Of a stretch of DNA of 64,000 bases, positions 43,648-64,000 are shown in pieces. Source of the DNA: a virus (taxonomy: Duplodnaviria > Caudoviricetes). The notes under the pieces were generated by a model that was not told where the DNA came from, made no database searches, and was given only the letters and a program-made list of their open reading frames with translations. Positions within the stretch are counted from its first letter, which is position 1; each line of letters begins with the position of its first letter. Location: positions 105,638-169,637 of the IMG/VR virus record IMGVR_UViG_3300026549_000037; one strand, 5' to 3'. The translations under genes and the position numbers were made by a program.

Positions 43648-43884
43648 TTGACAAACTCAAGAAGATGTGTTATATTATCATCAATGGGAGGCAGAGATGT
43701 GTCCTCTACCTTCCGTCAACTCATTCGTTAGTTGCGGTGCTTGATGATGAACACCTGAACTATGCTGCTAACATAGTCAACGAAAATGATTCGCTACATA
43801 TTTTCACTTCCTTTCCAAATAAAGTGACTACGAATGAGTAGTCTATAAACAGAGAGACAGTTGAATGAAACTGTCTCTCTTTTT
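43648..43884 (+). ncRNA. Cassette 1 antisense RNA unit (promoter to terminator)
   Basis: TTGACA 43648 / TATATT 43671; 5' hairpin; terminator 43851-43884. Confidence 0.75.
43728..43799 (-). CDS. Cassette 1 micro-peptide with TAG at codon 2: M*RIIFVDYVSSIVQVFIIKHRN
   Basis: GAAAGGAAG RBS; homologous to cassettes 3 and 4. Confidence 0.7.
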
Positions 43885-44470
43885 ACTTAAGGAACATCTT
43901 ACCATTCTCAGTGGTAATAGTATTCTTGTAAATCACATCTTTATAACAGAAGATGTAATTATCCAGAGTTTCATTACGCTGAAAACAATCAGGTTTAGTC
44001 ATACGACCGATACCAGACTTATCTCCCTCGTAAACTGTGATGAAATAGAAAGAAGGTTCTCTCACCAGATTATTTCCAAGAGAAGCAGAGAAAGAAAAAT
44101 CACGAATATATGTCTGAATTTCTTTTACTGTTTCTTTATCAGCAATAACATTAAGAACGTTAGAGCAGATAACAATATAAGGGTCATAATAGAGCCCCGA
44201 AGACAAAGCAATATTGTTTTCTTCAACAGGCTTCCAGAACGGGTCATATCCTCTGAAGATAAAACCCTTAGTAGCAAGGAACTGCTCAATATGGTCAGTA
44301 TAGCGACCACAGCCGAAATCAAGGACAATGGGGGTTCGGTCAAATTTGGTAATCTTTGCCCAATGCTCACGAAGAGCATCCCAATCTAAACGATTGTAGA
44401 TAGCAGGAAGCTTCTTGGAGTTGATGGAAGTGTTCTTAGAAGTGATGTCGGACTGAACAGTGCAATACAT
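43883..44470 (-). CDS. Class I SAM-dependent methyltransferase
   Basis: VLDFGCGR; YDPF; CSNVLNVI. Confidence 0.8.
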   Translation of the reverse strand: MYCTVQSDITSKNTSINSKKLPAIYNRLDWDALREHWAKITKFDRTPIVLDFGCGRYTDHIEQFLATKGFIFRGYDPFWKPVEENNIALSSGLYYDPYIVICSNVLNVIADKETVKEIQTYIRDFSFSASLGNNLVREPSFYFITVYEGDKSGIGRMTKPDCFQRNETLDNYIFCYKDVIYKNTITTENGKMFLK

Positions 44471-44501
44471 TGTAATACCTCCTTAAATTAAATGATTTTG
44501 T

Positions 44502-44819
44502 TCAAGAGCGAATCTGTGCTGCGATTTTGTCAACGACAAGACGATATTTGTTTGTCATTTTAGGGGACTTATAATTACGTCCTCTACGATAAACATTGAG
44601 GATGTCATATGTATCATCATCAACAAAGGGAGAAGTGAACTGGATAAGAACAGAAGCGAAATCAATCGGTTTTGTAGGAGCATCGGTTCGCCATTCAATG
44701 ATATACTTTCCACAACTGATAACAGGACGGAAGATTTTAAATTCACGTCCAGACTCATCATGAAGAGTCTTGAGATAGAAATAATTTCCATAAGTTGTGT
44801 TGTATTTAGACTTAGCCAT
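44502..44819 (-). CDS. hypothetical protein
   Basis: AGGAGG RBS. Confidence 0.65.
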   Translation of the reverse strand: MAKSKYNTTYGNYFYLKTLHDESGREFKIFRPVISCGKYIIEWRTDAPTKPIDFASVLIQFTSPFVDDDTYDILNVYRRGRNYKSPKMTNKYRLVVDKIAAQIRS

Positions 44820-44855
44820 TGTTACATCCTCCTTAAAAATATTTTTGAAAAACAC

Positions 44856-45116
44856 TTGACAAATAGAAAAAGATATGTTATAATATCTTTATGAAAAGGT
44901 TGGAAGTTCAATCCCGCCTAAGCTTATTTAAAGCTTAAAGTAGCCTAAATAACTTATACCAATCATTTTAAATTAAATGAAAGATTGATTTAGGAACCAT
45001 TTTAAATGGATTGAAATCTACATTTTATCACCTCAATTCTATTCCGATGAACATAAGATAGCTATACGGGTAGCGAGTAAGAGAGACAGAAGTGTGAGTT
45101 CTGTCTCTCATTTTTT
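44856..45116 (+). ncRNA. Cassette 2 antisense RNA unit
   Basis: TTGACA 44856 / TATAAT 44879; gcta-tacggg-tagc hairpin; terminator 45081-45116. Confidence 0.7.
44973..45023 (-). CDS. Cassette 2 micro-peptide with TAG at codon 2: M*ISIHLKWFLNQSFI
   Basis: GAGGTGA RBS; same position in cassette; divergent sequence. Confidence 0.5.
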
Positions 45117-45385
45117 CAATCAAGGGTTACATAATACCAACCAGTGCAATAATCTTCTTCATTGTTGCGCTTATCTTCTTCGGGGTCGTAATACCCTGTT
45201 ACGGGTGTCACTTCTTCGTTTTGAGACCTATAAAGTTGTGTTAAAAGGTCGGAAATGGTTTCAGCAATTTCTTCAGACTTACAAAGAATTTCATAGCCAT
45301 TAGACCAAATTTCCCCGTCTGGAAAGTCTCTTAGTCTTTCAAGAAATTCTGAAATCCATTCTTTTTTCTCTTCTTTATTAAACAT
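45116..45385 (-). CDS. hypothetical protein (TGYYDP.ED motif)
   Basis: GGGAGG RBS. Confidence 0.7.
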   Translation of the reverse strand: MFNKEEKKEWISEFLERLRDFPDGEIWSNGYEILCKSEEIAETISDLLTQLYRSQNEEVTPVTGYYDPEEDKRNNEEDYCTGWYYVTLD

Positions 45386-45406
45386 AGTAACCTCCCTTAA
45401 ACAAAC

Positions 45407-45688
45407 CTAAACATCAATGATAACAGATTCCTCAATAATGAGGAAATTCCCAGCAAGATGCATATTATAATGGGTATAAGTTGCGCCAGCAATGGATTCA
45501 ACGGGAATTGGGTCGCTGACGTAACCCAAATTACTCAGATACTCTTGCTTTGACTTGTAATCTTCAAGGGCAGCATCAGCTTCAAACCGCTCATCTTTAT
45601 TGTCAAAAGTGTAGATGTGAAGCTGTGCCTTTTCTATATTGTCGTTATCAGGAATCCATGCATAACCAGTGGACATATACTTTCTCAT
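45407..45688 (-). CDS. hypothetical protein (TAG stop, in frame with next gene)
   Basis: AGGAGG RBS. Confidence 0.65.
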   Translation of the reverse strand: MRKYMSTGYAWIPDNDNIEKAQLHIYTFDNKDERFEADAALEDYKSKQEYLSNLGYVSDPIPVESIAGATYTHYNMHLAGNFLIIEESVIIDV

Positions 45689-45709
45689 TTTTATTCCTCC
45701 TTAAGATTC

Positions 45710-46306
45710 TTAAAATAAGGTTTTGACCTCAAGTTTATTACAGTGACATTTACCACAGCGATAACGCTCAGGATGTTCAATAAGCTTGCACATTCTTGTC
45801 CTTGTAGCAACTATCCTGTTACAATTAGGACAATAAACCTGATATTTTGCCCCTCCAAGTTGAGCCGCAGTTTCCTGAGCATACCATGCAGGAGCATCTT
45901 CAGGATTTACACACCGAGTTACTTTAAACTCTGTGAAATTGGAAACATAATTAGCTTTGGATTTCCATTCGCCAGTATGTTTCATGCCGTTTTTGGTAGC
46001 ATGAAGAACCTCATGGAGAATTACTTCATGAACACCTCTGGGAAGGGCTGCTTCGAAATACCGATGAGAGAACGTGAGAACATATTTGTAATCACTGTCT
46101 TTGTAACAAAGACCCAGAGATTTAGGTCTGGGCTTTTCATTCCAACCAACGCGGAACTGGACATTCTGCATTTTCTTTTCATGCCCCCACATATAATCCA
46201 GCCAAACACAGATTTCATTCACCTCCTTTCTAATATCATCGAGAGTATAGTTTGCTGTGTCAGTGCGGGAAAAAGACTTAGGAATCAGAGAATAGATGTC
46301 AGCCAT
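45710..46306 (-). CDS. SprT-like Zn metalloprotease with Zn ribbon
   Basis: HEVLH..H...WK; CPNC...CGKC. Confidence 0.85.
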   Translation of the reverse strand: MADIYSLIPKSFSRTDTANYTLDDIRKEVNEICVWLDYMWGHEKKMQNVQFRVGWNEKPRPKSLGLCYKDSDYKYVLTFSHRYFEAALPRGVHEVILHEVLHATKNGMKHTGEWKSKANYVSNFTEFKVTRCVNPEDAPAWYAQETAAQLGGAKYQVYCPNCNRIVATRTRMCKLIEHPERYRCGKCHCNKLEVKTLF

Positions 46307-46341
46307 AATGTCAAACCTCCTTGAATTTAAATTGTTATGAT

Positions 46342-46893
46342 TTAATTGTGGTCACGAACATCTGCGAAATGGTCAATGATAGCGTTTGTGTCTTTTTGGA
46401 TTCTGTTGGTAGTCTTTTCAATTTCTTTGAGCAGGTTGAAACGAAGATTGGTGTAGATATTGTATTCTTCCCAACGAGTGATAAAACCAGCAGGAGAAAT
46501 ACCCAAAGCTCCAAAACAAGAAGTGGAAATAAATGGAACATTTAAACTATAATTTTCATTGAAATAAGGCCCCTGAACATACATACGACAGTCTTTATTA
46601 ATGGAAACATTAACTTGGCATCCCGTGTCATCCTCAATATAAGTAGCGCGAATCACAGAGATTTTAGCTTCTTTCATAGCTTCAACCAAAGGCTTAAGCT
46701 GTTCACAAATTGCGTTCCACTTAGCCTCACCAATTGCGTTGATTTTGGGAGTGTAGAAGCTATCAGTGGTTTCGTAGTTGTTTTTGGTTTCACTAAGTTT
46801 CTTGAGAGCCATAGCGAGTTCCAAATCTTCCTGCATATCATACTCGACAGTAACCTTGATGTTGTTGATGGTGTTTGTGTTCTTGATTTCCAT
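46342..46893 (-). CDS. hypothetical protein (paralog of 56634)
   Basis: FY.P.I.AIG.AKW..IC.QL...W..YNIY. Confidence 0.75.
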   Translation of the reverse strand: MEIKNTNTINNIKVTVEYDMQEDLELAMALKKLSETKNNYETTDSFYTPKINAIGEAKWNAICEQLKPLVEAMKEAKISVIRATYIEDDTGCQVNVSINKDCRMYVQGPYFNENYSLNVPFISTSCFGALGISPAGFITRWEEYNIYTNLRFNLLKEIEKTTNRIQKDTNAIIDHFADVRDHN

Positions 46894-46963
46894 AGTTGTT
46901 CTCCTTTAAATAAATTTATTTTGTGTTAAGATAGTAGAAAAGGGGTAGTTATCTACCCCTTAT

Positions 46964-47380
46964 TTACTGGACTTCAATGGTATAGAAATCTTCGTCACAG
47001 TGGAAACATTGATAAGTGTAATCTTCAACAGTAGAAGGATAAAGATTCCGTCCACACTTGGGGCATTTCTTTACGGGGTCACATTCCTCACCTCCATTCT
47101 CAAGGAACTCCTTTTCATCATCGGTGATGATTTCATTTTCATTAAGAGCAAAGAGAAGTCCGTCATAAGTTTCACAGATTTCCTTCTGAAACTCAGGAAC
47201 AGCCCCAATCTTACGCTTAATCATTTTCACCTCACTTCCATCCACAACAACGCAAGGAGTTTCGTCTCCAAAAACATTGTGCTCAAGGAGACAATAAACC
47301 TTATCATTGATGCGTTTAAAATCAATGATGCTCCACAGACCAGAATGACCAACAGTTTTGTAAGTATTGTCCTTAACCAT
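46964..47380 (-). CDS. hypothetical protein (GH.G.W..ID...LLEH..GDE domain plus Zn ribbon)
   Basis: AGGAG RBS; CPKCG...CFHC. Confidence 0.65.
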   Translation of the reverse strand: MVKDNTYKTVGHSGLWSIIDFKRINDKVYCLLEHNVFGDETPCVVVDGSEVKMIKRKIGAVPEFQKEICETYDGLLFALNENEIITDDEKEFLENGGEECDPVKKCPKCGRNLYPSTVEDYTYQCFHCDEDFYTIEVQ

Positions 47381-47427
47381 TTTTAAATCCTCCTTAAATT
47401 TGTTATTGTTTATGGTTAATGGTTTGG

Positions 47428-47643
47428 TTAAACCCGAGAATAGGTATCCCAATTCACATTGTAAAGATAAGAATCCATCATAATGAGAAAGAGTTTACGC
47501 TGATTAGATTCTCCCCAAACTCGCCGCATACCAGTGATATTGGGATGAGGCCCTGCATTGGGAAAAGATTCGATATGAGACTTAAGAAAAGGGGAAATGC
47601 TGGACTGCTTGGCATACTTGACGGGATAGACTTTGTTTTTCAT
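47428..47643 (-). CDS. hypothetical protein
   Basis: AGGAGG RBS. Confidence 0.65.
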   Translation of the reverse strand: MKNKVYPVKYAKQSSISPFLKSHIESFPNAGPHPNITGMRRVWGESNQRKLFLIMMDSYLYNVNWDTYSRV

Positions 47644-47680
47644 TTTGTGAAACCTCCTTAAAAATCTTTCTTAGAATTCT

Positions 47681-48289
47681 TTAAATTAACAGGATAAATA
47701 GGTCTTCAAAGTAATAGCCTTCCCGAGAAATCATTTCACAAGCTTTAAGCTCATTTTCTGAAAGGCAGTCTTTATTGAAGAGTGAATTTGCAGTAGCAAG
47801 ACCTGCGATATAACAAAGAGCAAGTTTAGAGAAAAATTCAAATTCATAAACTTTGAAGGTAACTCTTCCTTCTTCAACAAGCTGATTGAAAGTGTCAGCC
47901 CCCATACAAACAGCGGTAGGCATATTAGGACAACTATAATCAGGAACACAAATGTCCTTCCAAGAATTGATAGGCTCATCGAAGCTGTCTGTATAAAAAG
48001 TAACCTCAAGAACACAGGTTGTATCAAAAGGATGAGGTAAACAAGCATTCTGAATCTGAGCTGCTTCATTACAACGTTCAATACAATACTGAATCGCTGT
48101 TTCATTATCATCATCATAAATACATTCAGATTCTTTCATGAGAGAGGCATCATAAAAGAAAATAGAATCTCCATCGGCACACGTCCAAGGGTGAACAATC
48201 TTATTGTTTCCATGCTCAAGACCATATTCACCATGTGTGATTGGCTCGATAGCAGACTTGATGCAACCATGATAAAGAGTGTAAGACAT
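47681..48289 (-). CDS. hypothetical protein
   Basis: AGGAGG RBS; LYHG N-terminus. Confidence 0.7.
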   Translation of the reverse strand: MSYTLYHGCIKSAIEPITHGEYGLEHGNNKIVHPWTCADGDSIFFYDASLMKESECIYDDDNETAIQYCIERCNEAAQIQNACLPHPFDTTCVLEVTFYTDSFDEPINSWKDICVPDYSCPNMPTAVCMGADTFNQLVEEGRVTFKVYEFEFFSKLALCYIAGLATANSLFNKDCLSENELKACEMISREGYYFEDLFILLI

Positions 48290-48333
48290 AATACTAACCT
48301 CCTGAATTTTTTTAAAATTTTGTGAAATAATGC

Positions 48334-48586
48334 TTGACAAACAGATTGGAATATGTTATACTGTCCACAGTAAGAGAAGTTGACCCACATCTTCCCTTAC
48401 TGTGCGTAATTAAAGTGGTGTATTAATTACGGTGCTTCATAATGAAGACACAAACAATATTGTCGGTGTAATCGACGTAGATGATTTTCTACATACAATC
48501 GTCTCCTTTCAAATAAGATGATATGTAAACAGAGTTGTGGGACTCTGGAAACATTAGAGAGTGGTTTTACTGCTCTCTTTTGTTTT
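48334..48586 (+). ncRNA. Cassette 3 antisense RNA unit
   Basis: TTGACA 48334 / TATACT 48357; loops CCCACA x UGUGGG; terminator 48556-48586. Confidence 0.8.
48423..48494 (-). CDS. Cassette 3 micro-peptide with TAG at codon 2: M*KIIYVDYTDNIVCVFIMKHRN
   Basis: GAAAGGAGA RBS; homologous to cassettes 1 and 4. Confidence 0.7.
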
Positions 48587-49064
48587 AGTCACGAGGGTCA
48601 AAAGCAACGTCAATCCAAAGACTGTTTCCTGCCTCGGAGTCATAATAAAGTTCAGCATTTTCAACAAATAGCTCATCGGAAAGGTCATTCCAATCCAAAG
48701 AGCCGACTGCAACAGAGAGACAGGTATGTCCACCTCCAATTATCCATTTACCCTTAGATGTATTGTAGATTGCAATTTTGGTATCTTTGGAGAGGATTCG
48801 AATAAAATCCTTAATGGAAACATAGTGGTCAGGGTTTACAGTCTTATTTTCCTCCCCGTTTAAATAATTGCAAGCCGCCTTGAAATCTTCAAGGAAATAG
48901 TGACCCTGAGCCCAATAATGACGCTGATAATCAATTCCCCATGCCACAGTATAACGGGGATGACCATCATCAGTCCAATTGCACAGGAGAGTGCGGTCAA
49001 GTTCTTTGTTCTCCGCAACGATTTCGTAAGTGATGCCATTGTCATTCTTAAACTCTCTAACCAT
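48585..49064 (-). CDS. hypothetical protein (W.QGHYF motif)
   Basis: GGAGG RBS. Confidence 0.7.
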   Translation of the reverse strand: MVREFKNDNGITYEIVAENKELDRTLLCNWTDDGHPRYTVAWGIDYQRHYWAQGHYFLEDFKAACNYLNGEENKTVNPDHYVSIKDFIRILSKDTKIAIYNTSKGKWIIGGGHTCLSVAVGSLDWNDLSDELFVENAELYYDSEAGNSLWIDVAFDPRD

Positions 49065-49108
49065 TTTAAATACCTCCAAATATTTTTTAATAAATTTCGA
49101 AAAAAGAC

Positions 49109-49376
49109 TTGACAAATGTGTAAAGATATGCTATAATTAAGTCACAATCTAAAAGAGACCTGCAACCTCAGATAGATTGTGACTTGTATAAGAAATCAAC
49201 TCGCATTAATTTCTATGTTTAACTATTAATACCTAACAGGTATTATAAGTATAATCAATGTGTATGATTTTACTCATGTGAAATCACCTCTTTTCTCCCT
49301 CTATAGGGAAAGTTAAGCTTTGCAGGAGCTTAATAAAAAGGACGAGTAGCTGCTAACTACCCGTCCTTTTATTTTT
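49109..49376 (+). ncRNA. Cassette 4 antisense RNA unit
   Basis: TTGACA 49109 / TATAAT 49132; loops CCUGCAA x UUGCAGG; bidirectional terminator 49333-49376. Confidence 0.8.
49206..49277 (-). CDS. Cassette 4 micro-peptide with TAG at codon 15: MSKIIHIDYTYNTC*VLIVKHRN
   Basis: GAGGTGA RBS; the TAG aligns with CAG (Gln) of cassette 1. Confidence 0.7.
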
Positions 49377-49857
49377 ATCTGTTCTGCTTGCCAACAAAAG
49401 CAAGATTTTCTAACTTGATAGTCAGAACATCAGGCTTTTCATCAAGCTTGTTGAAATATGATGCCTGAATAAGACCAGTTGCCTGAAGGTCAGCTTTCTT
49501 GATTTCCTTACCGTCAAGGAAATACTTAACCTTAGACTTATTGGGAGTGCTGTGAGCAACAACATAGATGTTATGCTCACCAGCCTTGTTGGTGTGCTCA
49601 ATAAAACGGTCAGAACCAGAGAGATAAGTTCCCCAAGTCCTCTGCTGAGGAACATAGCCCTGTTCCATCTTTGCCTTGATGGAAGCCTTGTTTGTACGAT
49701 TGATGCCGAAGCGGACAGTTGCAAGGGTCTTCTTGTAGGCAACGTGACCAGCCCTCTTTGCTGCGGCAGTTAACGGAAGGTCAGTAGTCCATCCGATATT
49801 GGTGAAAGTCCCCTTGTGGATAGCGTTGATGATGGTCATAGCTTCGTTCTTGTTCAT
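49375..49857 (-). CDS. hypothetical basic protein
   Basis: AGGAG RBS; strongly biased codon usage. Confidence 0.75.
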   Translation of the reverse strand: MNKNEAMTIINAIHKGTFTNIGWTTDLPLTAAAKRAGHVAYKKTLATVRFGINRTNKASIKAKMEQGYVPQQRTWGTYLSGSDRFIEHTNKAGEHNIYVVAHSTPNKSKVKYFLDGKEIKKADLQATGLIQASYFNKLDEKPDVLTIKLENLAFVGKQNR

Positions 49858-49908
49858 GATTTTGTTCTCCTTTAAATTAAAATAGATTTTTATTCAGAAA
49901 CCCAGATT

Positions 49909-51102
49909 TCACTCTGGGCTGTCTGTTTTATTGTAAACATCAAAAGCATATTCTTGCTGGTATTTTTGTTCAGCTTCTTTTCTTGCTTGTACAGCTTCTT
50001 CAAAAGATGGGAAAAATTTATTTAAAACTTTTTTCTTTTTTACTGTTAAATTGGCTAACCACCTCTTTTTCCCACGCGGATTATAAGAAACACCTTTTAC
50101 TCCTGTTGTATTTCTTGAATTGGCATGGGAGTTCATACTATTTTGATAAGGTTCAACCACTCTTAAATTGTTTTTGCGATTATCTCTTATAAGATTGCCA
50201 GTTTTAGGATGCCTTTTATGGTCTACAATCCTTTTATCATCAAAATCCAATCCCATAATAAAACGATGCAAAAACAACTTTCGAGCTTTTCGATGTCCAA
50301 TACTAAAATTAGCAAACACATAACCTTTATTACTAAATGTCCAATAATATTCGCTAATTTTTTCGTAATCTTCTTTGTCGATTAGGAAATATTCTCCGTT
50401 TTTGTCATAAACCGTATAATAATCCCCGTCATCACTTAATTCATAAACATTGTGTTCTCTTCTTTCTTTTCCTGCGTCTATTAAGGCACAGCCACATGAT
50501 TTAACACTTCCGTTTTTTAAGTTATCCGAAGATACTGAAACTAATAAAGGATTACCACAATCACATTTGCAAAACCATCTTGGTTTGGCGCGATTACCTC
50601 TATTATAATCAGGAAAAAGAACAGTAAGTTTATTAAATTTTTGTCCCAGTAAATTTTCTCTCGTGCTTCTATTATCCTCTGCTTGGCACCCACAAGAAGT
50701 GGTATGCCCTGTGGTTAAATTGCTTTGATTAATAGAATATGGAATAACATTACCGCATTCACATTCGCAAAACCAATAGCGTATATTATTATGTTCTGAT
50801 TCCTCCCTTTCTAAATCTTCTTTTATTACAATTAGTCTTCCAAATTTACAGCCTGTTAAGTCTATTCTTTTTTCAAATGCTTTCTCCTTTTTTAAACATC
50901 CACAAGACCTAACAGGATGTTTTCCTGTTAAATTGTGGCGTTCAACTGAAATTATAGTATGTTTTTCACAAGAACATTCGCAGAGCCAGTAACTTCCTTT
51001 GGGTTTTCCTTCAGATTGTCTTTGTTTTTCTTTTTCTAAATCTTCTTTTATAACAGTTAATTTTCCGAAAACCTTTCCTGTATAATCTATCTTTTTACTC
51101 AT
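49909..51102 (-). CDS. HNH homing endonuclease with N-terminal Cys-rich repeats and C-terminal AP2 domain
   Basis: three (D)LTG.KFG.L.V..W.C.C.CG..SCGC repeats; LHRFIM..VDH..DNRKNNLR; NTTGVKGV..W.A..EEAVQARK. Confidence 0.85.
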   Translation of the reverse strand: MSKKIDYTGKVFGKLTVIKEDLEKEKQRQSEGKPKGSYWLCECSCEKHTIISVERHNLTGKHPVRSCGCLKKEKAFEKRIDLTGCKFGRLIVIKEDLEREESEHNNIRYWFCECECGNVIPYSINQSNLTTGHTTSCGCQAEDNRSTRENLLGQKFNKLTVLFPDYNRGNRAKPRWFCKCDCGNPLLVSVSSDNLKNGSVKSCGCALIDAGKERREHNVYELSDDGDYYTVYDKNGEYFLIDKEDYEKISEYYWTFSNKGYVFANFSIGHRKARKLFLHRFIMGLDFDDKRIVDHKRHPKTGNLIRDNRKNNLRVVEPYQNSMNSHANSRNTTGVKGVSYNPRGKKRWLANLTVKKKKVLNKFFPSFEEAVQARKEAEQKYQQEYAFDVYNKTDSPE

Positions 51103-51131
51103 AAATCCTCGACTTTCTTTATTGGAGAGGC

Positions 51132-52136
51132 TTAGGCAGCCTCTCCAATAATTTCATAAACTTTATTTAATAATGGCATTCCAACCATAACATTGGTAAA
51201 TCCCATTGGAGTTTTAGGGGTTCGCAGTGCTACAGGGTGAGACTCAAAGTCAGAAATTGCAAGGAGCCCCGCATATCCTGTATTTTTAAAATTCTCAACA
51301 TCAGCCTGCTTGTAGCACTTCATCAGATAATCAATCTGACAAAGATTGCGAATCTGGATAATGTCCTTATCCTCAGTATGAACAGGGAACAGTTCCTTTG
51401 CCATTTCAAAGAACTGATTTTCACTGAAATCAATCTTTGCATATTCCTCACACTCCTTCTTGAACTCCTCAAGATACTGCTTCTGTCCCATAAGAGTGAG
51501 ACGTGCCGCCTCAAGCTTATGATTCATAGAAGAACTATGACGAATACTGATTTCATTTACCATGCCCTTACGAGCACGAGCAAGGCAATTGGAACAAAAG
51601 ATGCGGATGCTGACATAAGAAATGGAGATTGCCCTACTTCCATCGTGGGAGTTTTGAAGTAGGAGATAAGGCTTATAATCATCACCAAGAATATTCATTC
51701 CCTCCGTACTCATGGTAATGATGTTTTTAGCTCCATTGGTTCCATAACTTCCTGCGGTTTCAAAGTGAGCACCTTCTTCCACAAGAGAGTCGAGGAAGTC
51801 AAAAGCATCTTCATTGTTCAGAATCTCATAGTTGGGAGAAACAATACCAAGAGACTGCATGGTATCAGTACGAACCGTAGCAACCTTATCCTTGATTGCA
51901 TAAGGAGTCTGAACCATAATCTGCTTATCTCCCATCATCTGAACAACGGGCTGAGTAAACTGGATAGGGAACTTCTCAACCTTGTAGTTGAGTCCAGACA
52001 ATTCGAGAGCCTGAGCAAGATTGCCAGCAGAGGTGATGTCCTTACCTACGCCATCGGTAAACACAGTGCGCTGAACATTGTCAAAACGAGAAGCGATAGG
52101 AGCGACTTTCTCACTATTGAACTGAAGAATACCCAT
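51132..52136 (-). CDS. DUF932-domain protein
   Basis: ATVRTDT..LGIVS..Y....N..AFDF; ETAGS; NSHDGS; RIFCSN. Confidence 0.85.
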   Translation of the reverse strand: MGILQFNSEKVAPIASRFDNVQRTVFTDGVGKDITSAGNLAQALELSGLNYKVEKFPIQFTQPVVQMMGDKQIMVQTPYAIKDKVATVRTDTMQSLGIVSPNYEILNNEDAFDFLDSLVEEGAHFETAGSYGTNGAKNIITMSTEGMNILGDDYKPYLLLQNSHDGSRAISISYVSIRIFCSNCLARARKGMVNEISIRHSSSMNHKLEAARLTLMGQKQYLEEFKKECEEYAKIDFSENQFFEMAKELFPVHTEDKDIIQIRNLCQIDYLMKCYKQADVENFKNTGYAGLLAISDFESHPVALRTPKTPMGFTNVMVGMPLLNKVYEIIGEAA

Positions 52137-52189
52137 AATATTTCCTTTCTGCGTTTAAGCTCGCCAGCTTTTTTGTTTTTGTTGAGATA

Positions 52190-52218
52190 ATTATATCACA
52201 AAAGTTTGGATTTGTCAA
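52190..52218 (-). promoter_or_regulatory. sigma-A promoter
   Basis: TTGACA-17-TATAAT on the - strand. Confidence 0.85.
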
Positions 52219-55698: not shown

Positions 55699-55783
55699 AA
55701 TAAATACTTCCTTTCTTAAATACATCTGTTTAAAACCTTATAAAGATTTAAACTACTTTCTTATGATTGAGATGAGAGGGGAA

Positions 55784-56278: not shown

Positions 56279-56350
56279 AATAGATTCCTTTCCGTTTTAA
56301 CGTCTTGAACGTGACGTAAATTTATTGAACCTTAATAATAAATGTTGTTA

Positions 56351-56569
56351 TTAGCATTCAGTCTTCTTAATGGACATAAAGTTTCCAAGCTCTTTTAGTG
56401 CAGTGAAAAGTTCACCAGCCAAAACGTCATTAAGCTGAAACTCAAGTTTTTGTCCATGAAAGTTAGTAACAGAGAAATTGTAAAAACCATTTTCTTTGTT
56501 GAGACTAATAGCTGTGGCAGACCTATCATCATTAGCACTGATATTATAAGTTTTGTTAATAGTTAGCAT
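56351..56569 (-). CDS. hypothetical protein
   Basis: ORF in operon. Confidence 0.55.
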   Translation of the reverse strand: MLTINKTYNISANDDRSATAISLNKENGFYNFSVTNFHGQKLEFQLNDVLAGELFTALKELGNFMSIKKTEC

Positions 56570-56633
56570 TTGATTCTTCTCACTTTCTTTTTTGTTGTGA
56601 TTGTGGATATTTTGATATAGAAAAAGATGGAAA

Positions 56634-57200
56634 TTATTTCCCAGCAATCTCATCATAATTTTCCCGAATAGAACGAATTCGAGTTTCATCAGCTTTGATT
56701 CTGCGCTCGATTTCTCTCATAAGAGCGGAACGGAAAAGATTATAAATGTTATAATCGTCCCACTTAACGAGCCAGCCATCTTTATCTTCACCCAAAGCAG
56801 TAGAGTAATATTCCTCACTGGGATTCAAGGTATAGTTAAAAGAAGTACGCCCTACAGTTGAGTATTTAAGGACATAAACTTTACCATAAGGATTATAACT
56901 AATACACATAAAACAACGTTCGCCAGTATCGTCTCTATTAAAAGAAGCCTGTAAAAAATTGCTAATTATATCTTTTACACCAATGTTTTCAACCGTCTTA
57001 CACAATTCAAGAAGCTGATTGCAGATTTCAGCCCATTTAGCAGCACCAATAGCCTTAATGCGAGGAAGATAAAATTCCTCAGTACGCTCACGAGTAGCTT
57101 TGATGTCGTTCATCTTTTGAATGAGCTCCATCATTTCGGTGTCCTCGTTCTCCTTGCAAGTAACGGTAACGGTCATGTTCTCATAAGTCTTAGTAGTCAT
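56634..57200 (-). CDS. hypothetical protein (paralog of 46342)
   Basis: FYLPRIKAIGAAKWAEICNQL. Confidence 0.75.
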   Translation of the reverse strand: MTTKTYENMTVTVTCKENEDTEMMELIQKMNDIKATRERTEEFYLPRIKAIGAAKWAEICNQLLELCKTVENIGVKDIISNFLQASFNRDDTGERCFMCISYNPYGKVYVLKYSTVGRTSFNYTLNPSEEYYSTALGEDKDGWLVKWDDYNIYNLFRSALMREIERRIKADETRIRSIRENYDEIAGK

Positions 57201-57250
57201 ATTTTGCTCCTTTTCTCCCCGTATAGCCGATAGGACAGCTTATAGTACTT

Positions 57251-57475
57251 TTATTTTATTAAATAATTTTTTGCATAATCGGTGTCGTTGCAGCTTTCAT
57301 CTTCTGTATTATAGCTACGCACACCATCAATATCAAATGCATATTCTATTTGATATCTTAAATCACCTACTGTCCCCTCTGCTTCTCGCAACAATTCAGC
57401 AAGATATAAAATATCTTGTTCTTCTCCTTGTATTATAAGATTATGCTCTTTAAATCGGTAGATTTTAGTTTCCAT
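57251..57475 (-). CDS. hypothetical protein
   Basis: AGGAGG RBS. Confidence 0.65.
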   Translation of the reverse strand: METKIYRFKEHNLIIQGEEQDILYLAELLREAEGTVGDLRYQIEYAFDIDGVRSYNTEDESCNDTDYAKNYLIK

Positions 57476-57495
57476 TTATTTTTTACCTCCTTTAT

Positions 57496-57732
57496 TTAAT
57501 GGCAGAAATGCTTGCAGAGTTCCTTACAGATAACGTGAGAGTATTCATTTCTCCCATCAAATCTGTAATCATCAGAACCACAAGTAGCAATCCACTTAAG
57601 ACACAAACGAGTGAATTCCTCTTGCAGATACCGATGTTCATGAGTCATGAGTTCACAGAACTCTTTGTTATCGTGGCTGAAATTATTAACAAAATCAGTC
57701 ATTGTGGAAACAGCTTCTTTAGCGGTAGGCAT
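57496..57732 (-). CDS. hypothetical protein (HRYLQ..DGRNE)
   Basis: AGGAG RBS. Confidence 0.7.
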   Translation of the reverse strand: MPTAKEAVSTMTDFVNNFSHDNKEFCELMTHEHRYLQEEFTRLCLKWIATCGSDDYRFDGRNEYSHVICKELCKHFCH

Positions 57733-57768
57733 AGTTTTATTCTCCTTTCTTAAATCAAGCACTCAAAA

Positions 57769-58074
57769 TTAGATTTCAACTTCGATGATTTTACAATCCC
57801 AATTGTCGTGATTAAAAGTTTCTGCCCAAGCACAACTCTCATTGAGATTGTTTTCATCGTCCAAAATATCCTCTTTGATAAGGACATCCATAACCTTGTC
57901 TAAATCATCATTGGAATTGATTTCGAATTCGTAATCGTAACTGTTTTCATCCACATATTTACAGGCTTCAAAAAACTTTTCAAGCATACGAATTTGTGCT
58001 TTAAGCATGGTATCAAAGAACTCAGGTTCCCCAATTTCACGCTCACAGCAATCAATAACCATGTACTTCTTCAT
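57769..58074 (-). CDS. hypothetical protein
   Basis: RBS. Confidence 0.65.
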   Translation of the reverse strand: MKKYMVIDCCEREIGEPEFFDTMLKAQIRMLEKFFEACKYVDENSYDYEFEINSNDDLDKVMDVLIKEDILDDENNLNESCAWAETFNHDNWDCKIIEVEI

Positions 58075-58114
58075 AATTTTTTCATTTCCTTTCTTAAATC
58101 ACAATTATTGTTTG

Positions 58115-58303
58115 TTAATCATCAAAATCGCAATTTTCTTCATCGAGGTTGGCATCTCCAACCCATTCAACCTGACGCATTGGAATTAAATCCAAATGCT
58201 TAGAAGCATATTTGATAGCTTCATCAATGGTCATGTCATCAGGGACTTGAATGGAGGAATTATACACTCCAATGCAGTTTACGGTTACATTCAGGGTTTT
58301 CAT
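58115..58303 (-). CDS. hypothetical protein
   Basis: RBS. Confidence 0.65.
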   Translation of the reverse strand: MKTLNVTVNCIGVYNSSIQVPDDMTIDEAIKYASKHLDLIPMRQVEWVGDANLDEENCDFDD

Positions 58304-58346
58304 AATTTTACTTCCTTTCTTAAATCATAAAGGTTGTTATTAGTAT

Positions 58347-58691
58347 TCAGTAATTTATTTCCTCCTTTCTCACATAAATATGATACCAATCTGCTCCCAA
58401 CCAAAAATCCCACTCTCCAAGAATGGTATCTTCAGGTTCAGTGCAAGAAACTTCTGTCAAAATTCCTTTTTCATTAGGAACAAACATCACACCTTCACAC
58501 CAAGAAGGGGCTTCGTCTGAACCACAAAGTTTGAAGTCAACTACAACTCCATTTTCAAATTTTACTGTAAGAAGATAAGAAGACTCTTTTTCTCCTAACC
58601 AATATCTACGATTTTCTTCATCATCCAAACAAGCGGCTTCTACATACCTTGCAATGGACGAAGAAATGTTAATAGTTTTCTCAAATTTCAT
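58347..58691 (-). CDS. hypothetical protein (paralog of the N-terminal half of 59021)
   Basis: LTV.F..G...D...CGS..APSWCE.V..ILG.W. Confidence 0.75.
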   Translation of the reverse strand: MKFEKTINISSSIARYVEAACLDDEENRRYWLGEKESSYLLTVKFENGVVVDFKLCGSDEAPSWCEGVMFVPNEKGILTEVSCTEPEDTILGEWDFWLGADWYHIYVRKEEINY

Positions 58692-58765
58692 TTTTTATTC
58701 CTCCTCCTTAACGTCAGTGGCTTCAAAGTCATCCGACCAAGAAATATCTTCTTTTCAAAAAAGTC

Positions 58766-59040
58766 TTGACAAATGCACTTTTATGTGTTACAATACCTAC
58801 AGAGTCAAGAGACCCGTAATCTCTTAACTCTGTAGGATATTGTTTTAGGCTTCCTTATAGCTCAAGGAAACCAGTTAAAACGATTACATAATAGTAAACG
58901 TTAAAACGGTAGTTGATAGATTTAATTTTCTACATGGCTTTCATCTCCTTTCTGCCTTAGACAAGGGTTTCATATATTTGAACAGCTTACGGGGCTGGAA
59001 TTTTAGATGGGAACAGGATTTTACTCCTGTTCCTTTTCTT
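58766..59040 (+). ncRNA. Cassette 5 antisense RNA unit
   Basis: TTGACA 58766 / TACAAT 58789; loops CCCGUAA x UUACGGG; terminator 59009-59040. Confidence 0.8.
58855..58935 (-). CDS. Cassette 5 micro-peptide with TAG at codon 2: M*KIKSINYRFNVYYYVIVLTGFLEL
   Basis: GAAAGGAGA RBS; homologous to cassette 6. Confidence 0.7.
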
Positions 59041-59851
59041 TCTCTTCAAAGGGCTTAAGAGGAACACGATTTCGAGTAGTGTATTTTCCTTCGTCATCCA
59101 TCAGAAAATCGTTTTCACAGGAATCACAGAAGAATTTGGTTTCATTCCTGAAATTGTCAACTTCCTCAACCCAATAGTTCCCACAGTAAGGACAGCGAGG
59201 CTCAATATACTGTCCGAATTTAATATCCTCCTGATATTCCTCAGAACGAAGTTCAGACCAAACCTTGACAGAAAATTCCTTAGGATTATCAGGATTGAGC
59301 TCAGCCATGCAAATATCCTGTTCGACTGTCTGTCCATCACGGACAAACGTAATAAACGCTCCATGATACCCTTCTTCCATTTCAGGATAAATCCTGAACT
59401 GACCATTAGGCGTGTCGATAGATGCGTAAGGGACGCTGTTCTTAGTCGCAGAATGCATCATCATCTCATTGAACACTTTATTGTTTTTGTTGATAGGCAT
59501 TTCTGTTTCCTCCTCAATTTTGACATTGACAATATATTCATTCTTAGTATCAGGGGCAACCATTTCCCAATGACCGAGGATAGAATCATAAACTGCTCCA
59601 GAACAGTTTATTTCATGTAAACCTCCGTTTTCATCAGGAGTCCAAAGAACAGACTCACACCAAGAGGGAGCATCCTGAGAACCACAGCAACGAATATCCA
59701 TTACCGTTCCATCAGAAAATCTAACGGTAAGGGTGAATGGAGTTTTATTTTCTGAGAACCAATCTTCGGGATAGCTTAAAGAACACGCCTTATTAATTTT
59801 GGCGGCAATATCCTTGCTGATAAAGATGTCTTTTTCATAAAAATGCTTCAT
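59021..59851 (-). CDS. hypothetical multi-domain protein with C-terminal Zn ribbon
   Basis: AGGAGG RBS; internal GAGGAGG..ATG near 59500; CPYC..CDSC. Confidence 0.7.
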   Translation of the reverse strand: MKHFYEKDIFISKDIAAKINKACSLSYPEDWFSENKTPFTLTVRFSDGTVMDIRCCGSQDAPSWCESVLWTPDENGGLHEINCSGAVYDSILGHWEMVAPDTKNEYIVNVKIEEETEMPINKNNKVFNEMMMHSATKNSVPYASIDTPNGQFRIYPEMEEGYHGAFITFVRDGQTVEQDICMAELNPDNPKEFSVKVWSELRSEEYQEDIKFGQYIEPRCPYCGNYWVEEVDNFRNETKFFCDSCENDFLMDDEGKYTTRNRVPLKPFEEKEKEQE

Positions 59852-59898
59852 TTTACTTATCCTCCTTAAAGTTATTTTTTATTTTTTGGTTTTTGGTT

Positions 59899-60096
59899 TT
59901 AATACATATAATACTCATCGTCATGATGAAGATATTTCTCAGTCAAATCCTTTAAAGGTTGACTGATTTTTGCGGGTTTCTCTTTAAGGCGTGAATCCTT
60001 AAAGGCTCGATTTGTGTAGTATCGGAACTTGCCATGTCCCTTTACCATTTTATTATGTTTTTGAGCTTGTAGGATTTCATGTTCGTTCATGCCCAT
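59899..60096 (-). CDS. hypothetical protein
   Basis: AGGAGGTG RBS. Confidence 0.6.
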   Translation of the reverse strand: MGMNEHEILQAQKHNKMVKGHGKFRYYTNRAFKDSRLKEKPAKISQPLKDLTEKYLHHDDEYYMY

Positions 60097-60125
60097 ATTA
60101 TTTCACCTCCTTTTGCTGTAATTTA

Positions 60126-60380
60126 TTAGTTCTTCTTAAGGCGAGGGGTAATGGCAACACCATTTTCGGTGCTAACAACGATATACTCAACTCCATTATC
60201 TTTGTCCGTAAGAATATTAGCAGAAATAGTGGCTTTCTCCGCAACGGTCTTTTCAACAAACGGAGACCAACAAAAGCTGGAATATCCCGCTGAAACAGAG
60301 CTAATAAACAAGGTGATAAGAACGATAATGCAAATGATAAAGGTGACGATGTTCTTCTTCATAGTGTTCATGGTTTTCAT
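60126..60380 (-). CDS. membrane-anchored DUF6440-like protein
   Basis: TM then ILTDKDNGVEYI...GVAITPR. Confidence 0.65.
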   Translation of the reverse strand: MKTMNTMKKNIVTFIICIIVLITLFISSVSAGYSSFCWSPFVEKTVAEKATISANILTDKDNGVEYIVVSTENGVAITPRLKKN

Positions 60381-60434
60381 TTTTCTTTTTCCTTTCCTTT
60401 TCTTTTTATCCTATTTAATTTCAATTACTGATTA

Positions 60435-61274
60435 TTAACAGTCTCCAATTGCTACGGCATAATAGAAATCATACATCTTTTGACGTGAGTTAACATCTAA
60501 CTCATCCCAAGATTCAACTTCCTCGCCTGATGCACTCATGTCTTCTTCATACCACTTCCTTGCTGTATATTCTGGGAATCCTGCTTTTGTAATAATGTGT
60601 TCTGATTCTACACCTTCTTCCTTTGTGCTTGTAGTAATTGAGGAGATTTGATATGGTTGATACGGAATGTTAATGTAATCATTATATAAACTGCCATATC
60701 CATATCTACCATACCCATATCCACCATAACCCCCATATCTATAACCGTAATTTGCCATATGGTATGTTTCTTTTAAGTGGGGCTTATTTAAGAATGTCGC
60801 AATACTTTCGACTTGTTCATTGCATTCAATAGCAGATTTACAGTATTTATTGCGAACAGTTCTTATTGGGTCATCATAGCCCATCTTACCTAAGACACAA
60901 GCGGCAATATATCCTGTTCTACCATGTCCGCCAAGACAGAAGATTGCAACTTTCTTTGTCTTAATACGAGAAATAATGTCCGTCACACAACGCTTAAGAA
61001 TAGATTGAGGTAAAACCCCATAATCTTCAATGGGATAATATAGAACTTCGCCGCAAAAACCTGTATTCCAAATCTCCCCACCAAGTTCTGCTAAAGGAAC
61101 AAGAACATCAATTTTCTTTTCTTTTACGAGGTCTTTCACTTGACGCTCTTTGCAAAGATAAAGATTTGGAATGATTTCTGTAGGCTTGTGACAGGCAGTG
61201 GAAGCCCAAATGTTTTTGGCTTCTAAGACATTGTTTGTCTTGTTTTTATTTTTCTTTTTGTTGCGCTTACTCAT
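60435..61274 (-). CDS. Protein-tyrosine/dual-specificity phosphatase
   Basis: PIEDY; FCLGGHGRTG (CX5R); AIE...Q. Confidence 0.88.
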   Translation of the reverse strand: MSKRNKKKNKNKTNNVLEAKNIWASTACHKPTEIIPNLYLCKERQVKDLVKEKKIDVLVPLAELGGEIWNTGFCGEVLYYPIEDYGVLPQSILKRCVTDIISRIKTKKVAIFCLGGHGRTGYIAACVLGKMGYDDPIRTVRNKYCKSAIECNEQVESIATFLNKPHLKETYHMANYGYRYGGYGGYGYGRYGYGSLYNDYINIPYQPYQISSITTSTKEEGVESEHIITKAGFPEYTARKWYEEDMSASGEEVESWDELDVNSRQKMYDFYYAVAIGDC

Positions 61275-62268
61275 TAGAACTTAACCCCCTTCTATCAAAA
61301 CGACTTTTATCATTTTTTCTCCTTCTCCGTTTTCTGTTTTCTTTATCTTCGTCTTCAAAGTCTTCTGGATGAACCTCTCTATAATATCCATCCTTTTTAT
61401 CTATATCAGACGGATAGATTCTGCTTGTTCCCCATTTAACGGGAATATAGTTCATAATGTTGTCGGTAGTTTCTTCTTTCTGCTCTGAAACAGCGCTATA
61501 ATAGCCACCATAACACTCAGAAAGTAGATAAATATTTTCTTTGTCTGTTAAGGGAGAAATTATGCCGAGATTTAAAGCTCTTTTGTAAAAGGCTTTAATC
61601 TCATAAGTACAATTGTCTTGGCAAACATCCCATACTGCAAATGGTGGTTGATTTTTCTTGAATTCAAGAAAATTCAGCACAGCCGTATTTGAAGAACCCA
61701 AGAAAAATATCCTATTTCTCTTGTTGTAGAAAATACCGTTATTGTGGCTCAAATCAACCATATGGTCGATAAAAACCGAATCGGGAACTTTCTTATATAA
61801 TAAAGCACCATCTGCAATGGCTTGCCATGCATAGCCGCCATAAGCACAGTTCCAATCCTTATTATAACTAAAAAGCTTGGAACAGGTAATCAAAGCATTT
61901 GTTGGCTCAAGATGCGGACAGTTCCATAAACTGTTTCGTTCATTTAATGCGGGTGTGAGATAACGAATTTCATAATTGCACTTTTCGGGCGCGTGACGTG
62001 CTTCACCCAAGCAAAGTGCAACGGCATAGTCATAAAACATTACTGCAAATTGAGCATCGAATTTGGTTTTAAATTCTTCAAATTCTTCAACCCACTTATC
62101 ATGTCCATGATTAAATGGAATCGGTTTGGCCATGACACTTAAAGCTTCGAGGGCATAAAACTCTCTGATACCTTGATACACAGGAACGATAATGTTGCTG
62201 GGACAAATTTCTCCATCGCCCCAATTTGGGAATCTTTTAGGATTTTGTTTGAATAAATCATCGTACAT
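61267..62268 (-). CDS. hypothetical protein (GEARH, YGG.AW, DH.VDL.HNNG motifs)
   Basis: 333-aa ORF, AGGAGG RBS. Confidence 0.7.
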   Translation of the reverse strand: MYDDLFKQNPKRFPNWGDGEICPSNIIVPVYQGIREFYALEALSVMAKPIPFNHGHDKWVEEFEEFKTKFDAQFAVMFYDYAVALCLGEARHAPEKCNYEIRYLTPALNERNSLWNCPHLEPTNALITCSKLFSYNKDWNCAYGGYAWQAIADGALLYKKVPDSVFIDHMVDLSHNNGIFYNKRNRIFFLGSSNTAVLNFLEFKKNQPPFAVWDVCQDNCTYEIKAFYKRALNLGIISPLTDKENIYLLSECYGGYYSAVSEQKEETTDNIMNYIPVKWGTSRIYPSDIDKKDGYYREVHPEDFEDEDKENRKRRRRKNDKSRFDRRGLSSNE

Positions 62269-62324
62269 TTTACTTAGCCTCCTTTAAAATAAAGTTGAAA
62301 TATTTATTTAAAAATGTAAAGAGT

Positions 62325-62636
62325 TTAATAATGGTATCTGCCCCCTTGGGGATTATCCTCCTTCCTCTTGTAATTAAACACCTTGCTAATATTGTAAGCC
62401 CAAATATTATTCAGGCTTGCATCAACACAAGGTTGCACATGAATTGGAAAATGAATTGAAGCGCAATACTCTTCAATCCTTTTGAGTTGGAATTTTCGGA
62501 ACACTGTGATGGTTTCACCCTTGAGCAGAGCTCTGATGTCAGCTTGTTCAAGAGTGTCAATCAGCAGGTTTAGTTTGTTGTTGCTATCTATGTTATTGAT
62601 AGCTTCATTTAGGTAACGTTCCTGCATCGTAAGCAT
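62325..62636 (-). CDS. hypothetical protein
   Basis: AGGAGG RBS. Confidence 0.6.
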   Translation of the reverse strand: MLTMQERYLNEAINNIDSNNKLNLLIDTLEQADIRALLKGETITVFRKFQLKRIEEYCASIHFPIHVQPCVDASLNNIWAYNISKVFNYKRKEDNPQGGRYHY

Positions 62637-62637
62637 T

Positions 62638-63093
62638 TTACTTAGCCTCCTTTTCACGATTTACAGCAGCTTTTCTTAATTCATCCTGAGAATCATAATA
62701 CTGCTCAAAGGCATCACAGCCTTCCCAAGAGATTTCAGATTGAAGCTTTACAAGCTTTTCCGTGGCTTCTGCCAACGCTCTCTGAGCCTCTTCGAGAGCA
62801 GACTTCTGTAATGCAATATAGGAATCCATTGCAATATTCTTTGCCATAAGAATGGCGGTGAATTCATCTTTGAAAAACCCTTCATAGTGCTGAGGCATAA
62901 TATGAGTTTTCATTTCATTGAAAGTGCTCATACTGATAAACCGTTCTCTCAATTCGTGTGATGCCAGAAAATATACAGGATTTTCATTGGTATTTTGAAT
63001 ATTCTGAATTTTATACACACACAGAACATTCATTGTAGTAGGTTGACGATATGTTAAGATATATTCATATCCGTCCAAAGTAATATTTTTCAT
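62638..63093 (-). CDS. hypothetical protein
   Basis: AGGAGG RBS. Confidence 0.65.
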   Translation of the reverse strand: MKNITLDGYEYILTYRQPTTMNVLCVYKIQNIQNTNENPVYFLASHELRERFISMSTFNEMKTHIMPQHYEGFFKDEFTAILMAKNIAMDSYIALQKSALEEAQRALAEATEKLVKLQSEISWEGCDAFEQYYDSQDELRKAAVNREKEAK

Positions 63094-63118
63094 TTGCTTT
63101 TATCCTCCTAAATTTTAA

Positions 63119-63328
63119 TTAGAAATAATACTTAAAGTAACAGTCGATGGGTTTGACTGTCACTTTAGCCGATGAGCTCAAACCCATCTTGGTTGTTTTG
63201 ACAACATATCCAAAACGGGCATAAGCGTCCTTCTCACTTCTGGCTACCACGTCGCCCTCGTATAGCTTGGATTGTCCTCCAAGCTGTGCAACGTAGGCTT
63301 TGACGTGGTATTTACTACGTAATTTCAT
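63119..63328 (-). CDS. hypothetical protein
   Basis: AGGAGGTG RBS. Confidence 0.6.
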   Translation of the reverse strand: MKLRSKYHVKAYVAQLGGQSKLYEGDVVARSEKDAYARFGYVVKTTKMGLSSSAKVTVKPIDCYFKYYF

Positions 63329-63342
63329 TAATTCACCTCCTT

Positions 63343-63663
63343 TTATTCTGCGGTAATGACCCACTCTTCGCCATTACCATCAACAATATGAACAACTTCA
63401 TCGTTGATAGTAACAGATTCGAGATTGCTCATCCATGCTTCCACAATCTCTACATGAGAAGCCATAGCTGACTCTTCAGCGTCAGACAATCCTGTTTCAT
63501 ATCCTACTTGGAAAGACCCTGTAAGGTCTTCACGACTATAAAGAGTATCATCTTTAATCTGATAGGATTTCTCTCCCATGTCCCATCCAAGATAGAACAT
63601 AAAGATAGAGCAGATAGCGGCGATGAGCGCTGCGACCAAAATAATGTTTTCCTTAATTTTCAT
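63343..63663 (-). CDS. membrane-anchored protein
   Basis: GGAGG RBS; N-terminal TM. Confidence 0.65.
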   Translation of the reverse strand: MKIKENIILVAALIAAICSIFMFYLGWDMGEKSYQIKDDTLYSREDLTGSFQVGYETGLSDAEESAMASHVEIVEAWMSNLESVTINDEVVHIVDGNGEEWVITAE

Positions 63664-63697
63664 TTTTCTATTCCTCCAAATATTTTATAAATTTTAC

Positions 63698-64000
63698 TTG
63701 ACAAACGCTAAATACTATGGTATAATTCTCTCAAGAAGTGAGGAATCCCGTATTATTTTCTCACTCCTTGAGGCTATTGGTTGATACTATCAGAACTTTA
63801 AGTTGCGACCTTAAAGCTCAATTACGCCACCAACATAAATGGCGTAGACTACAATGCTGAATCTGTAATCAACCTACTTTGTGAGTGTCATATATGATTC
63901 ACTTCCTTTCTTCCTCTAACTGAGGGATTGTCCATCTATACGGGCTGGACTTATAGGAAAAGATTGAACGACTCGTTGTGGGAGTCGTTCTTTCTTTTTT
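63698..64000 (+). ncRNA. Cassette 6 antisense RNA unit
   Basis: TTGACA 63698 / TATAAT 63721; loops CCCGUAU x AUACGGG; terminator 63966-64000. Confidence 0.8.
63811..63891 (-). CDS. Cassette 6 micro-peptide with TAG at codon 6: MTLTK*VDYRFSIVVYAIYVGGVIEL
   Basis: GAAAGGAAG RBS; homologous to cassette 5. Confidence 0.7.

Follow-up and report, generated by a model that had tools for sequence, protein, structure and literature searches.

Six miniature ORFs and the predicted RNAs opposite them

A single phage contig of 169,637 bases (IMG/VR record IMGVR_UViG_3300026549_000037; 35% G+C, 78% complete according to CheckV) ends in the window considered here, which makes up its last 64,000 bases. The window contains a leftward block in which every protein gene is on the minus strand, and within this block are six 'cassettes', each combining a miniature open reading frame (ORF) that carries an in-frame TAG (amber) codon with a predicted antisense RNA unit on the opposite strand (Table 1). 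The ORFs were first picked out in a sequence-only reading of the window, and all six were found again at the same coordinates, with TAG at the same codons. Every one of them ends in TAA, is free of internal TAA and TGA, and is preceded at a distance of 7-9 nt by a GGAG-type Shine-Dalgarno (SD) sequence. Five of them are homologs of one another and belong to two related families, the first of 23 codons with the ending (K/Y/H)(H/N)RN and the other of 26 codons with the ending G..E(L/V); the TAG within cassette 4 aligns with a CAG of cassette 1. The encoded peptides are moderately hydrophobic, mildly cationic and rich in both beta-branched and aromatic residues, with a best 15-residue hydropathy window of 0.7-2.2.

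On the plus strand, each cassette has a predicted sigma-70-type promoter (TTGACA, 17 nt, TGnTATAAT; 11-12 of 12 consensus matches) and a strong intrinsic terminator, such that the predicted product is a structured RNA of 200-270 nt, fully antisense to both ORF and SD. These promoters and terminators are the best plus-strand matches in the block. Cassette 2 is the odd one out: two relatives have a cassette, encoding a normal 23-codon peptide, with which it is near-identical in terminator, small hairpin, SD, ATG-TAG and antisense promoter, and some 130 nt of its core have been replaced (44973-45023, compared with L007:3900-4180). The new core includes a tRNA T-arm-like stretch on the plus strand.

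Table 1. Coordinates of the cassettes and of other features of the contig (window positions unless marked 'genome' or L001)
Feature	Position	Strand	Description
Cassette 1 peptide ORF	43728-43799	-	23 codons, ends KHRN-stop, strong SD; TAG at codon 2 (43794-43796)
Cassette 1 antisense unit	43648..43886	+	Promoter TTGACA-17-TATATT with TG; RNA ~200 nt; intrinsic terminator 43851-43880 (predicted)
Cassette 2 ORF	44973-45023	-	16 codons; TAG at codon 2 (45018-45020); core not homologous
Cassette 2 antisense unit	44856..45116	+	12/12 consensus promoter; RNA; terminator 45081-45109 (predicted)
Cassette 3 peptide ORF	48423-48494	-	23 codons, KHRN type; TAG at codon 2 (48489-48491)
Cassette 3 antisense unit	48334..48586	+	Promoter; RNA; terminator 48556-48578 (predicted)
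Cassette 4 peptide ORF	49206-49277	-	23 codons, KHRN type; codon 2 AGT (Ser); TAG at codon 15 (49233-49235)
Cassette 4 antisense unit	49109..49374	+	12/12 consensus promoter; RNA; bidirectional terminator near 49340-49370 (predicted)
Cassette 5 peptide ORF	58855-58935	-	26 codons, ends GFLEL-stop; TAG at codon 2 (58930-58932)
Cassette 5 antisense unit	58766..59040	+	Promoter; RNA; terminator 59009-59034 (predicted)
Cassette 6 peptide ORF	63811-63891	-	26 codons, ends EL-stop; codon 2 ACA (Thr); TAG at codon 6 (63874-63876)
Cassette 6 antisense unit	63698..64000	+	12/12 consensus promoter; RNA; terminator stem ~63966-63990, T run to contig end (predicted)
tRNA(CUA)	genome 102193-102504 (L001:10194-10505)		Split by 222-nt insert; 3.1 kb upstream of window
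Two adjoining genes	45116-45688	-	93-aa gene with terminal TAG; 89-aa gene in same frame, 7 codons on
Homing-endonuclease-like genes	genome 3731-5956 and 12158-13348		HNH/NUMOD and DUF7487, with in-frame TAG, amid late genes
RAGATH-33 RNA match	genome 97068-97216 (L001:5069-5217)		119.4 bits (gathering score 120.4); within tRNA cluster
YrlA (Y RNA-like) match	L001:7693-7797		Weak, 34.9 bits (gathering score 69); in tRNA cluster
Odd tRNA-like genes	genome 98372-98443, 98787-98905, 99028-99147		Outside window
569-aa protein	5096-6805		DUF2828 and DUF7788 domains

When 29 cassette copies are aligned, the order of their elements is the same in all. After the end of the upstream gene come a terminator hairpin and a small hairpin, then a TA.ATA-like element ahead of the SD and ATG; the ORF follows, with a hairpin that takes in its stop codon, a further hairpin, the antisense -10 and -35 elements, and then the next gene. 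The hairpins flanking the ORF have complementary loops that covary between cassette types (for example CCCGUAA with UUACGGG, CCCACA with UGUGGG; window positions 43683-43886, 48369-48586 and 58801-59040, together with homologs in L007-L038), which points to long-range 'kissing' between them in a single RNA. A given peptide subtype stands before different genes in different genomes, and a given gene comes after different subtypes; this shuffling of cassettes fits a mobile module better than it fits a leader dedicated to a particular gene.

Coding selection and the retention of TAG

Searches of INPHARED by DNA and protein similarity gave no match for cassette DNA, block DNA or one late protein, and thus no near deposited relative; some 25 relatives of 110-220 kb are, however, present in IMG/VR. 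Homologs of the mini-ORFs were drawn from about 20 of these, yielding 31 and 13 distinct sequences for the two window families (44 in total). Across these 44 ORFs variation is greatest at third codon positions and least at second, and of the codon differences involving a single base, 55% and 76% (in the two families, respectively) are synonymous in frame, as against 15-24% in the other frames. The same holds beyond the last TAG site, where the figures are 65% and 79% in frame versus 7-20% in the other frames. With amino-acid sequence conserved across the entire ORF amid synonymous turnover, this pattern of substitution indicates that the mini-ORFs are under coding selection, and that they are so after the TAG as well as before it.

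Each of the 44 distinct intact ORFs has at least one in-frame TAG. This codon makes up 62 of their 73 glutamine-type codons (82-86% in the peptides) and roughly 6% of all their codons, whereas in the late genes of the phage it accounts for 96 of 899 glutamine-type codons (10.7%); the in-frame excess is far above chance. The position of TAG varies across the wider family (codons 2, 6, 10, 12, 14 and 15), and in the two window families every copy with Ser, Lys, Gln, Thr or Arg at codon 2 has a TAG elsewhere. In order not to favour TAG, a DNA pattern that left codon 2 free to be TAG, TAA, CAA or CAG was run over IMG/VR: among the 24 distinct sequences that it matched, codon 2 was TAG in 23, TAA in one, and CAA or CAG in none. 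A mixture of TAA, TGA and frameshift lesions, named in the sequence-only reading as the mark of ordinary pseudogenisation, is thus not what the homologs present; what they do is keep TAG. The same pattern found only two matches in the genomes of 185,579 species, both of them ATG-TAG and both in phage-like contigs binned in metagenome-assembled genomes (MAGs), and on these two scans the peptides are confined to this phage clade.

Taken together, these counts are strong evidence from sequence comparison that TAG is retained in the peptides by selection. Two other accounts of the codon were considered and set aside. TAG might persist because it serves as a motif at the RNA level, where the antisense RNA would read CUA, but it is frame-specific (62 TAG trinucleotides in frame versus 24 out of frame in the 44 ORFs) and it shifts position. 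Translation might alternatively begin at a downstream non-AUG start and so skip codon 2, but TAGs at codons 6-15 could not be bypassed in this way, and the spacing of the SD suits the ATG.

Recoding of TAG in the late genes, and a split suppressor tRNA

The late genes, on the plus strand at ~1.7-80 kb of the contig, are broken up by TAG when read in the standard bacterial code (code 11), and join into long fused frames when TAG is read as sense. Two such fused ORFs, one of 1736 aa in which TAG occurs 13 times and one of 2173 aa in which it occurs 12 times, both match tape measure proteins, and the TAG-rich late genes as a group match tape measure, portal and virion proteins. Reading TAG as sense raises coding density in this region from 0.81 to 0.92, and 41 of its 97 code-11 ORFs end in TAG. 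On the plus strand of the early/middle region the corresponding densities are 0.81 and 0.82, with one of 124 ORFs ending in TAG, and in the leftward block 0.87 and 0.87, with three of 41. The early genes fit the standard code, and reading TAG as sense brings no gain in coding density there; that TAG is rare as the terminator of ordinary genes, as the sequence-only reading had counted by hand, holds for both of these regions. In all relatives tested, the late loci show the same TAG recoding as in this contig.

What TAG encodes was judged from unique sites in late-protein orthologs of at least 60% identity. At 23 such sites the sense codon opposite TAG is CAA in 15, CAG in four, a lysine codon in two, and a tryptophan and a glutamate codon in one each. 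We take TAG to be glutamine, as in genetic code 15, because CAA or CAG stands opposite it at 19 of these 23 sites and because TAG faces glutamine between the internal repeats of a late DUF7487 protein. Serine had also been suspected, given that Ser lies opposite TAG twice among the window paralogs and that the suppressor tRNA (see below) has a long variable arm; the ortholog substitution table ruled it out.

A search of the contig with ARAGORN, with introns allowed, recovered a tRNA with the anticodon CUA (Table 1), as would be expected from the suggestion in the sequence-only reading that a phage-borne amber suppressor might be present. The same suggestion extended to RF2 and aminoacyl-tRNA synthetases, and here the contig (complete to the extent given above) has neither RF1 or RF2 nor GlnRS or GluRS genes. 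The tRNA(CUA) is split after U33 by its 222-nt insert, with a U preceding the insert and a G ending it. Set against the Rfam model Intron_gpI (RF00028) the insert scores 26.6 bits, below the gathering score of 50, with an E value of 8e-5 in a search of 501 nt; it is probably a group I intron, the splicing of which is a prediction. The closest relative (L062:3201-3290) has exactly the spliced, 90-nt tRNA without an insert and with a compensatory change in the acceptor stem; the exon junction of this intronless ortholog is identical, and removal of the insert restores a canonical tRNA. A 75-nt intronless CUA tRNA occurs in two relatives and a 219-nt insert at the same site in another, and the more distant relatives G004 and G005 have intron-bearing tRNAs of ambiguous anticodon.

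A proposed two-lock module

We propose that the cassettes are autonomous modules, resembling type I toxin-antitoxin (TA) loci, that are shut by two 'locks', the antisense RNA and the amber codon; this is the reading that we favour, and we hold it with moderate confidence. The first lock would be the antisense RNA: from the plus-strand promoter, of the host sigma-70-like type, a structured RNA of the predicted 200-270 nt, fully complementary to the RBS (ribosome-binding site) and ORF of the peptide, would be made as far as its intrinsic terminator. The second would be the in-frame TAG, usually at codon 2, at which a ribosome using the standard code of the host should stop at once (ATG-TAG) or early. 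The phage tRNA(CUA) would then read TAG as glutamine, although in this genome the probable group I intron must go first. Full-length peptide, of 23-26 residues, should be producible only after the code switch, because TAG in the ORF is a stop under the standard code of the host and is predicted to become glutamine by way of the phage tRNA(CUA); its production probably also requires a drop in the level of the antisense RNA. Transcription of both strands, and its timing, we infer. As for the peptide, its role would be that of an effector deployed late in infection, active on membranes or damaging to the host in some other way, and its function is probably type I toxin-like. The suggestion in the sequence-only reading that the peptides are made only when an amber suppressor is present, under double control by antisense RNA and codon, is thus supported by the late recoding, by the assignment of TAG to glutamine, by the tRNA(CUA) and by homologs that keep their TAG; its alternative proposal, that UAG is edited, is unnecessary and has found no support.

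Several observations weigh against such a module. No convincing promoter was found for the peptide strand, the sole candidate being the conserved TA.ATA-like element between the upstream hairpin and the SD, and readthrough operon transcripts may equally well serve as the mRNA of the peptide. The peptides match no known toxin family, and a hydrophobic stretch of ~15 residues is short for a membrane helix. The cassette RNAs have no Rfam family at gathering score, nor at E<=1 beyond chance-level matches. The long variable arm of the suppressor is unusual, and that it is charged with glutamine we infer from substitution patterns alone. Lastly, there are peptides in the relatives that lack TAG. A third subfamily, of 24 codons and ending NYNF, is present in two complete relatives in tandem arrays (L072, G004:157800-160000; L073, G003:179800-182200), and three of the peptides of this subfamily are TAG-free and are nonetheless opposed by consensus antisense promoters; a counterpart of this region may be part of the 22% that our contig lacks. 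There are also three decayed copies in relatives, namely one frameshifted, one truncated, and one ATG-TAA, the last being an ortholog of cassette 1 (L008:5503-5574) in which a single G-to-A change has produced the sole non-TAG stop found at codon 2. The statement that every cassette peptide carries a TAG is consequently correct for all six in the window and fails for the wider family; we regard the code lock as strongly favoured rather than obligatory, because TAG-free and decayed copies exist.

The cassettes might instead act as sensors of the code switch. Here the transit of ribosomes after suppression would remodel the local RNA, that is the stop-codon hairpin and the flanking hairpins with pairing loops, and so alter antisense pairing, processing or the expression of neighbouring early operons, with the peptide a by-product or a nascent-chain signal. 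Much of the anatomy described above would suit such a leader: the standard code makes a start-stop of ATG-TAG, a hairpin takes in the final codons together with the stop, the flanking hairpins have complementary loops that change together from one cassette type to another, and the cassettes are located at operon boundaries. We nevertheless think it unlikely, as amino-acid sequence is conserved over the whole ORF while synonymous codons turn over, the cassettes have been shuffled relative to the genes downstream, and TAG-free copies exist. These last copies count in favour of the idea that there is no selected gate at all, and that the mini-ORFs are ordinary late-expressed small genes in which TAG is just one of the three glutamine codons available to a code-15 phage. 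TAG is indeed a sense codon in this phage, and at some sites it exchanges with CAA/CAG, His, Ser or Cys. Against this, the share of TAG among glutamine-type codons is out of all proportion to that in the late genes, CAA and CAG are absent from codon 2 where TAG occurs in 23 distinct sequences, window-family copies without TAG at codon 2 always carry one elsewhere, and the surrounding block otherwise avoids TAG; we consider the absence of a gate improbable.

A further possibility, already raised in the sequence-only reading, is that the ORFs are relics of disarmed toxins, kept for the sake of antisense RNAs that are useful in some other way, for instance against type I toxins of the host. The few decayed copies, and the replacement of the core of cassette 2 between flanks that were kept, are what one might expect of dead ORFs. 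Coding selection continues after the TAG, however, the phage itself decodes TAG, and the scan of the 185,579 species' genomes found no host-genome homologs (only the two phage-like contigs), so that we give this explanation very little credence.

Returning to the two-lock module, we speculate that it works as an AND gate, in which a host-damaging peptide is licensed only when amber suppression (delayed here by the intron) coincides with the fading of an antisense RNA driven by a host-type promoter. We offer this more specific version tentatively, and are nearer to being undecided about it than persuaded. If it is correct, the gate could let the phage set the time of host killing or lysis, or punish an infection that has been interrupted, and the genetic code itself would be a regulatory input of a toxin switch, making this a new class of type I toxin-like module. 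In either form the proposal is a compact and testable model, in which a code switch serves as a viral regulatory signal and the type I TA design gains a second lock, independent of the first. Ordinary gene callers overlook these ORFs, for ATG-TAG is read as nothing, and recoded genomes may hide other families of small phage effectors.

Other features of the contig

Within the leftward block, the 93-aa and 89-aa genes listed in Table 1 could be joined by a code switch into a fusion of 190 aa. This arrangement is common to just one relative and seems incidental; as a conserved TAG fusion, the pair (ORFs 45407-45688 and 45116-45385) was rejected, the TAG being a normal stop at a conserved C-terminus that is followed by an unrelated gene. 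Among the late genes, a portal-like ORF appears interrupted beside one of the homing-endonuclease-like genes (HNH/NUMOD or DUF7487). The tRNA cluster upstream of the window holds the RAGATH-33 and YrlA matches, and of the three odd tRNA-like genes, one combines an anticodon loop of 6 nt with an acceptor stem of 8 bp and the other two carry 23-46 nt of inserted sequence in the anticodon region. The YrlA-like RNA and the 569-aa protein of the window may form a pair resembling Ro and its Y RNA.

Comparison with known systems

Limited literature searches turned up no account either of antisense cassettes gated by amber or of a phage suppressor split by an intron. Of the systems to which parts of this arrangement can be compared, the split tRNA has its closest counterparts in the group I introns of cyanobacterial tRNA-Leu(UAA) and Azoarcus tRNA-Ile, with which it shares a small insert in the anticodon loop (222 nt here), a U before the 5' splice site, a G at the end of the intron, and an intronless ortholog that fixes the junction. 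It differs from these in that the tRNA concerned has a long variable arm and is an amber suppressor encoded by a phage, and in an Rfam score that is below the gathering threshold. An early stop codon that ties the output of an ORF to the state of the decoding machinery is also found in start-stop mini-ORFs and in sensors of release factor or decoding, for example the in-frame UGA of prfB; in the cassettes, however, the proposed read-out is tRNA suppression and not frameshifting, and the peptide sequence downstream is conserved.

The closest likeness for the cassettes themselves is to type I TA loci with a fully overlapping cis-antisense RNA, such as ibs/Sib of E. coli, with looser parallels in hok/Sok, fst/RNAII, txpA/RatA and bsrG/SR4. 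As in such loci, the ORF is very small, has a strong RBS and encodes a hydrophobic peptide; there are a strong convergent promoter, and an antisense RNA (here predicted, of 200-270 nt) that has its own terminator and covers ORF and RBS; several diverged copies per genome; and structured RNAs with predicted long-range pairing. Unlike those loci, the cassettes show no sequence or Rfam similarity to type I systems and have no clear toxin promoter, they belong to the early block of a phage that is large and looks virulent, and translation of the ORF would require a change of code that is itself encoded by the virus.

Gut phages with code 15 or code 4 have been described as using the recoding of stop codons as a translational gate (Borges et al., bioRxiv 10.1101/2021.08.26.457843; Peters et al., PMC9523058). 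The former, a preprint, reports the gating of late and lysis genes and the preferential recoding of some gene families, and does not mention toxins or antisense RNAs. Our phage resembles these in having late structural genes in which TAG is reassigned to glutamine, early genes in the standard code, a suppressor tRNA of its own, and certain gene families that prefer the recoded stop to the normal codon. The difference lies in which genes these are: here recoding is focused on miniature ORFs, 23-26 codons long, that are embedded among early genes where the standard code applies, and each of them faces a predicted antisense RNA by which it would be guarded.

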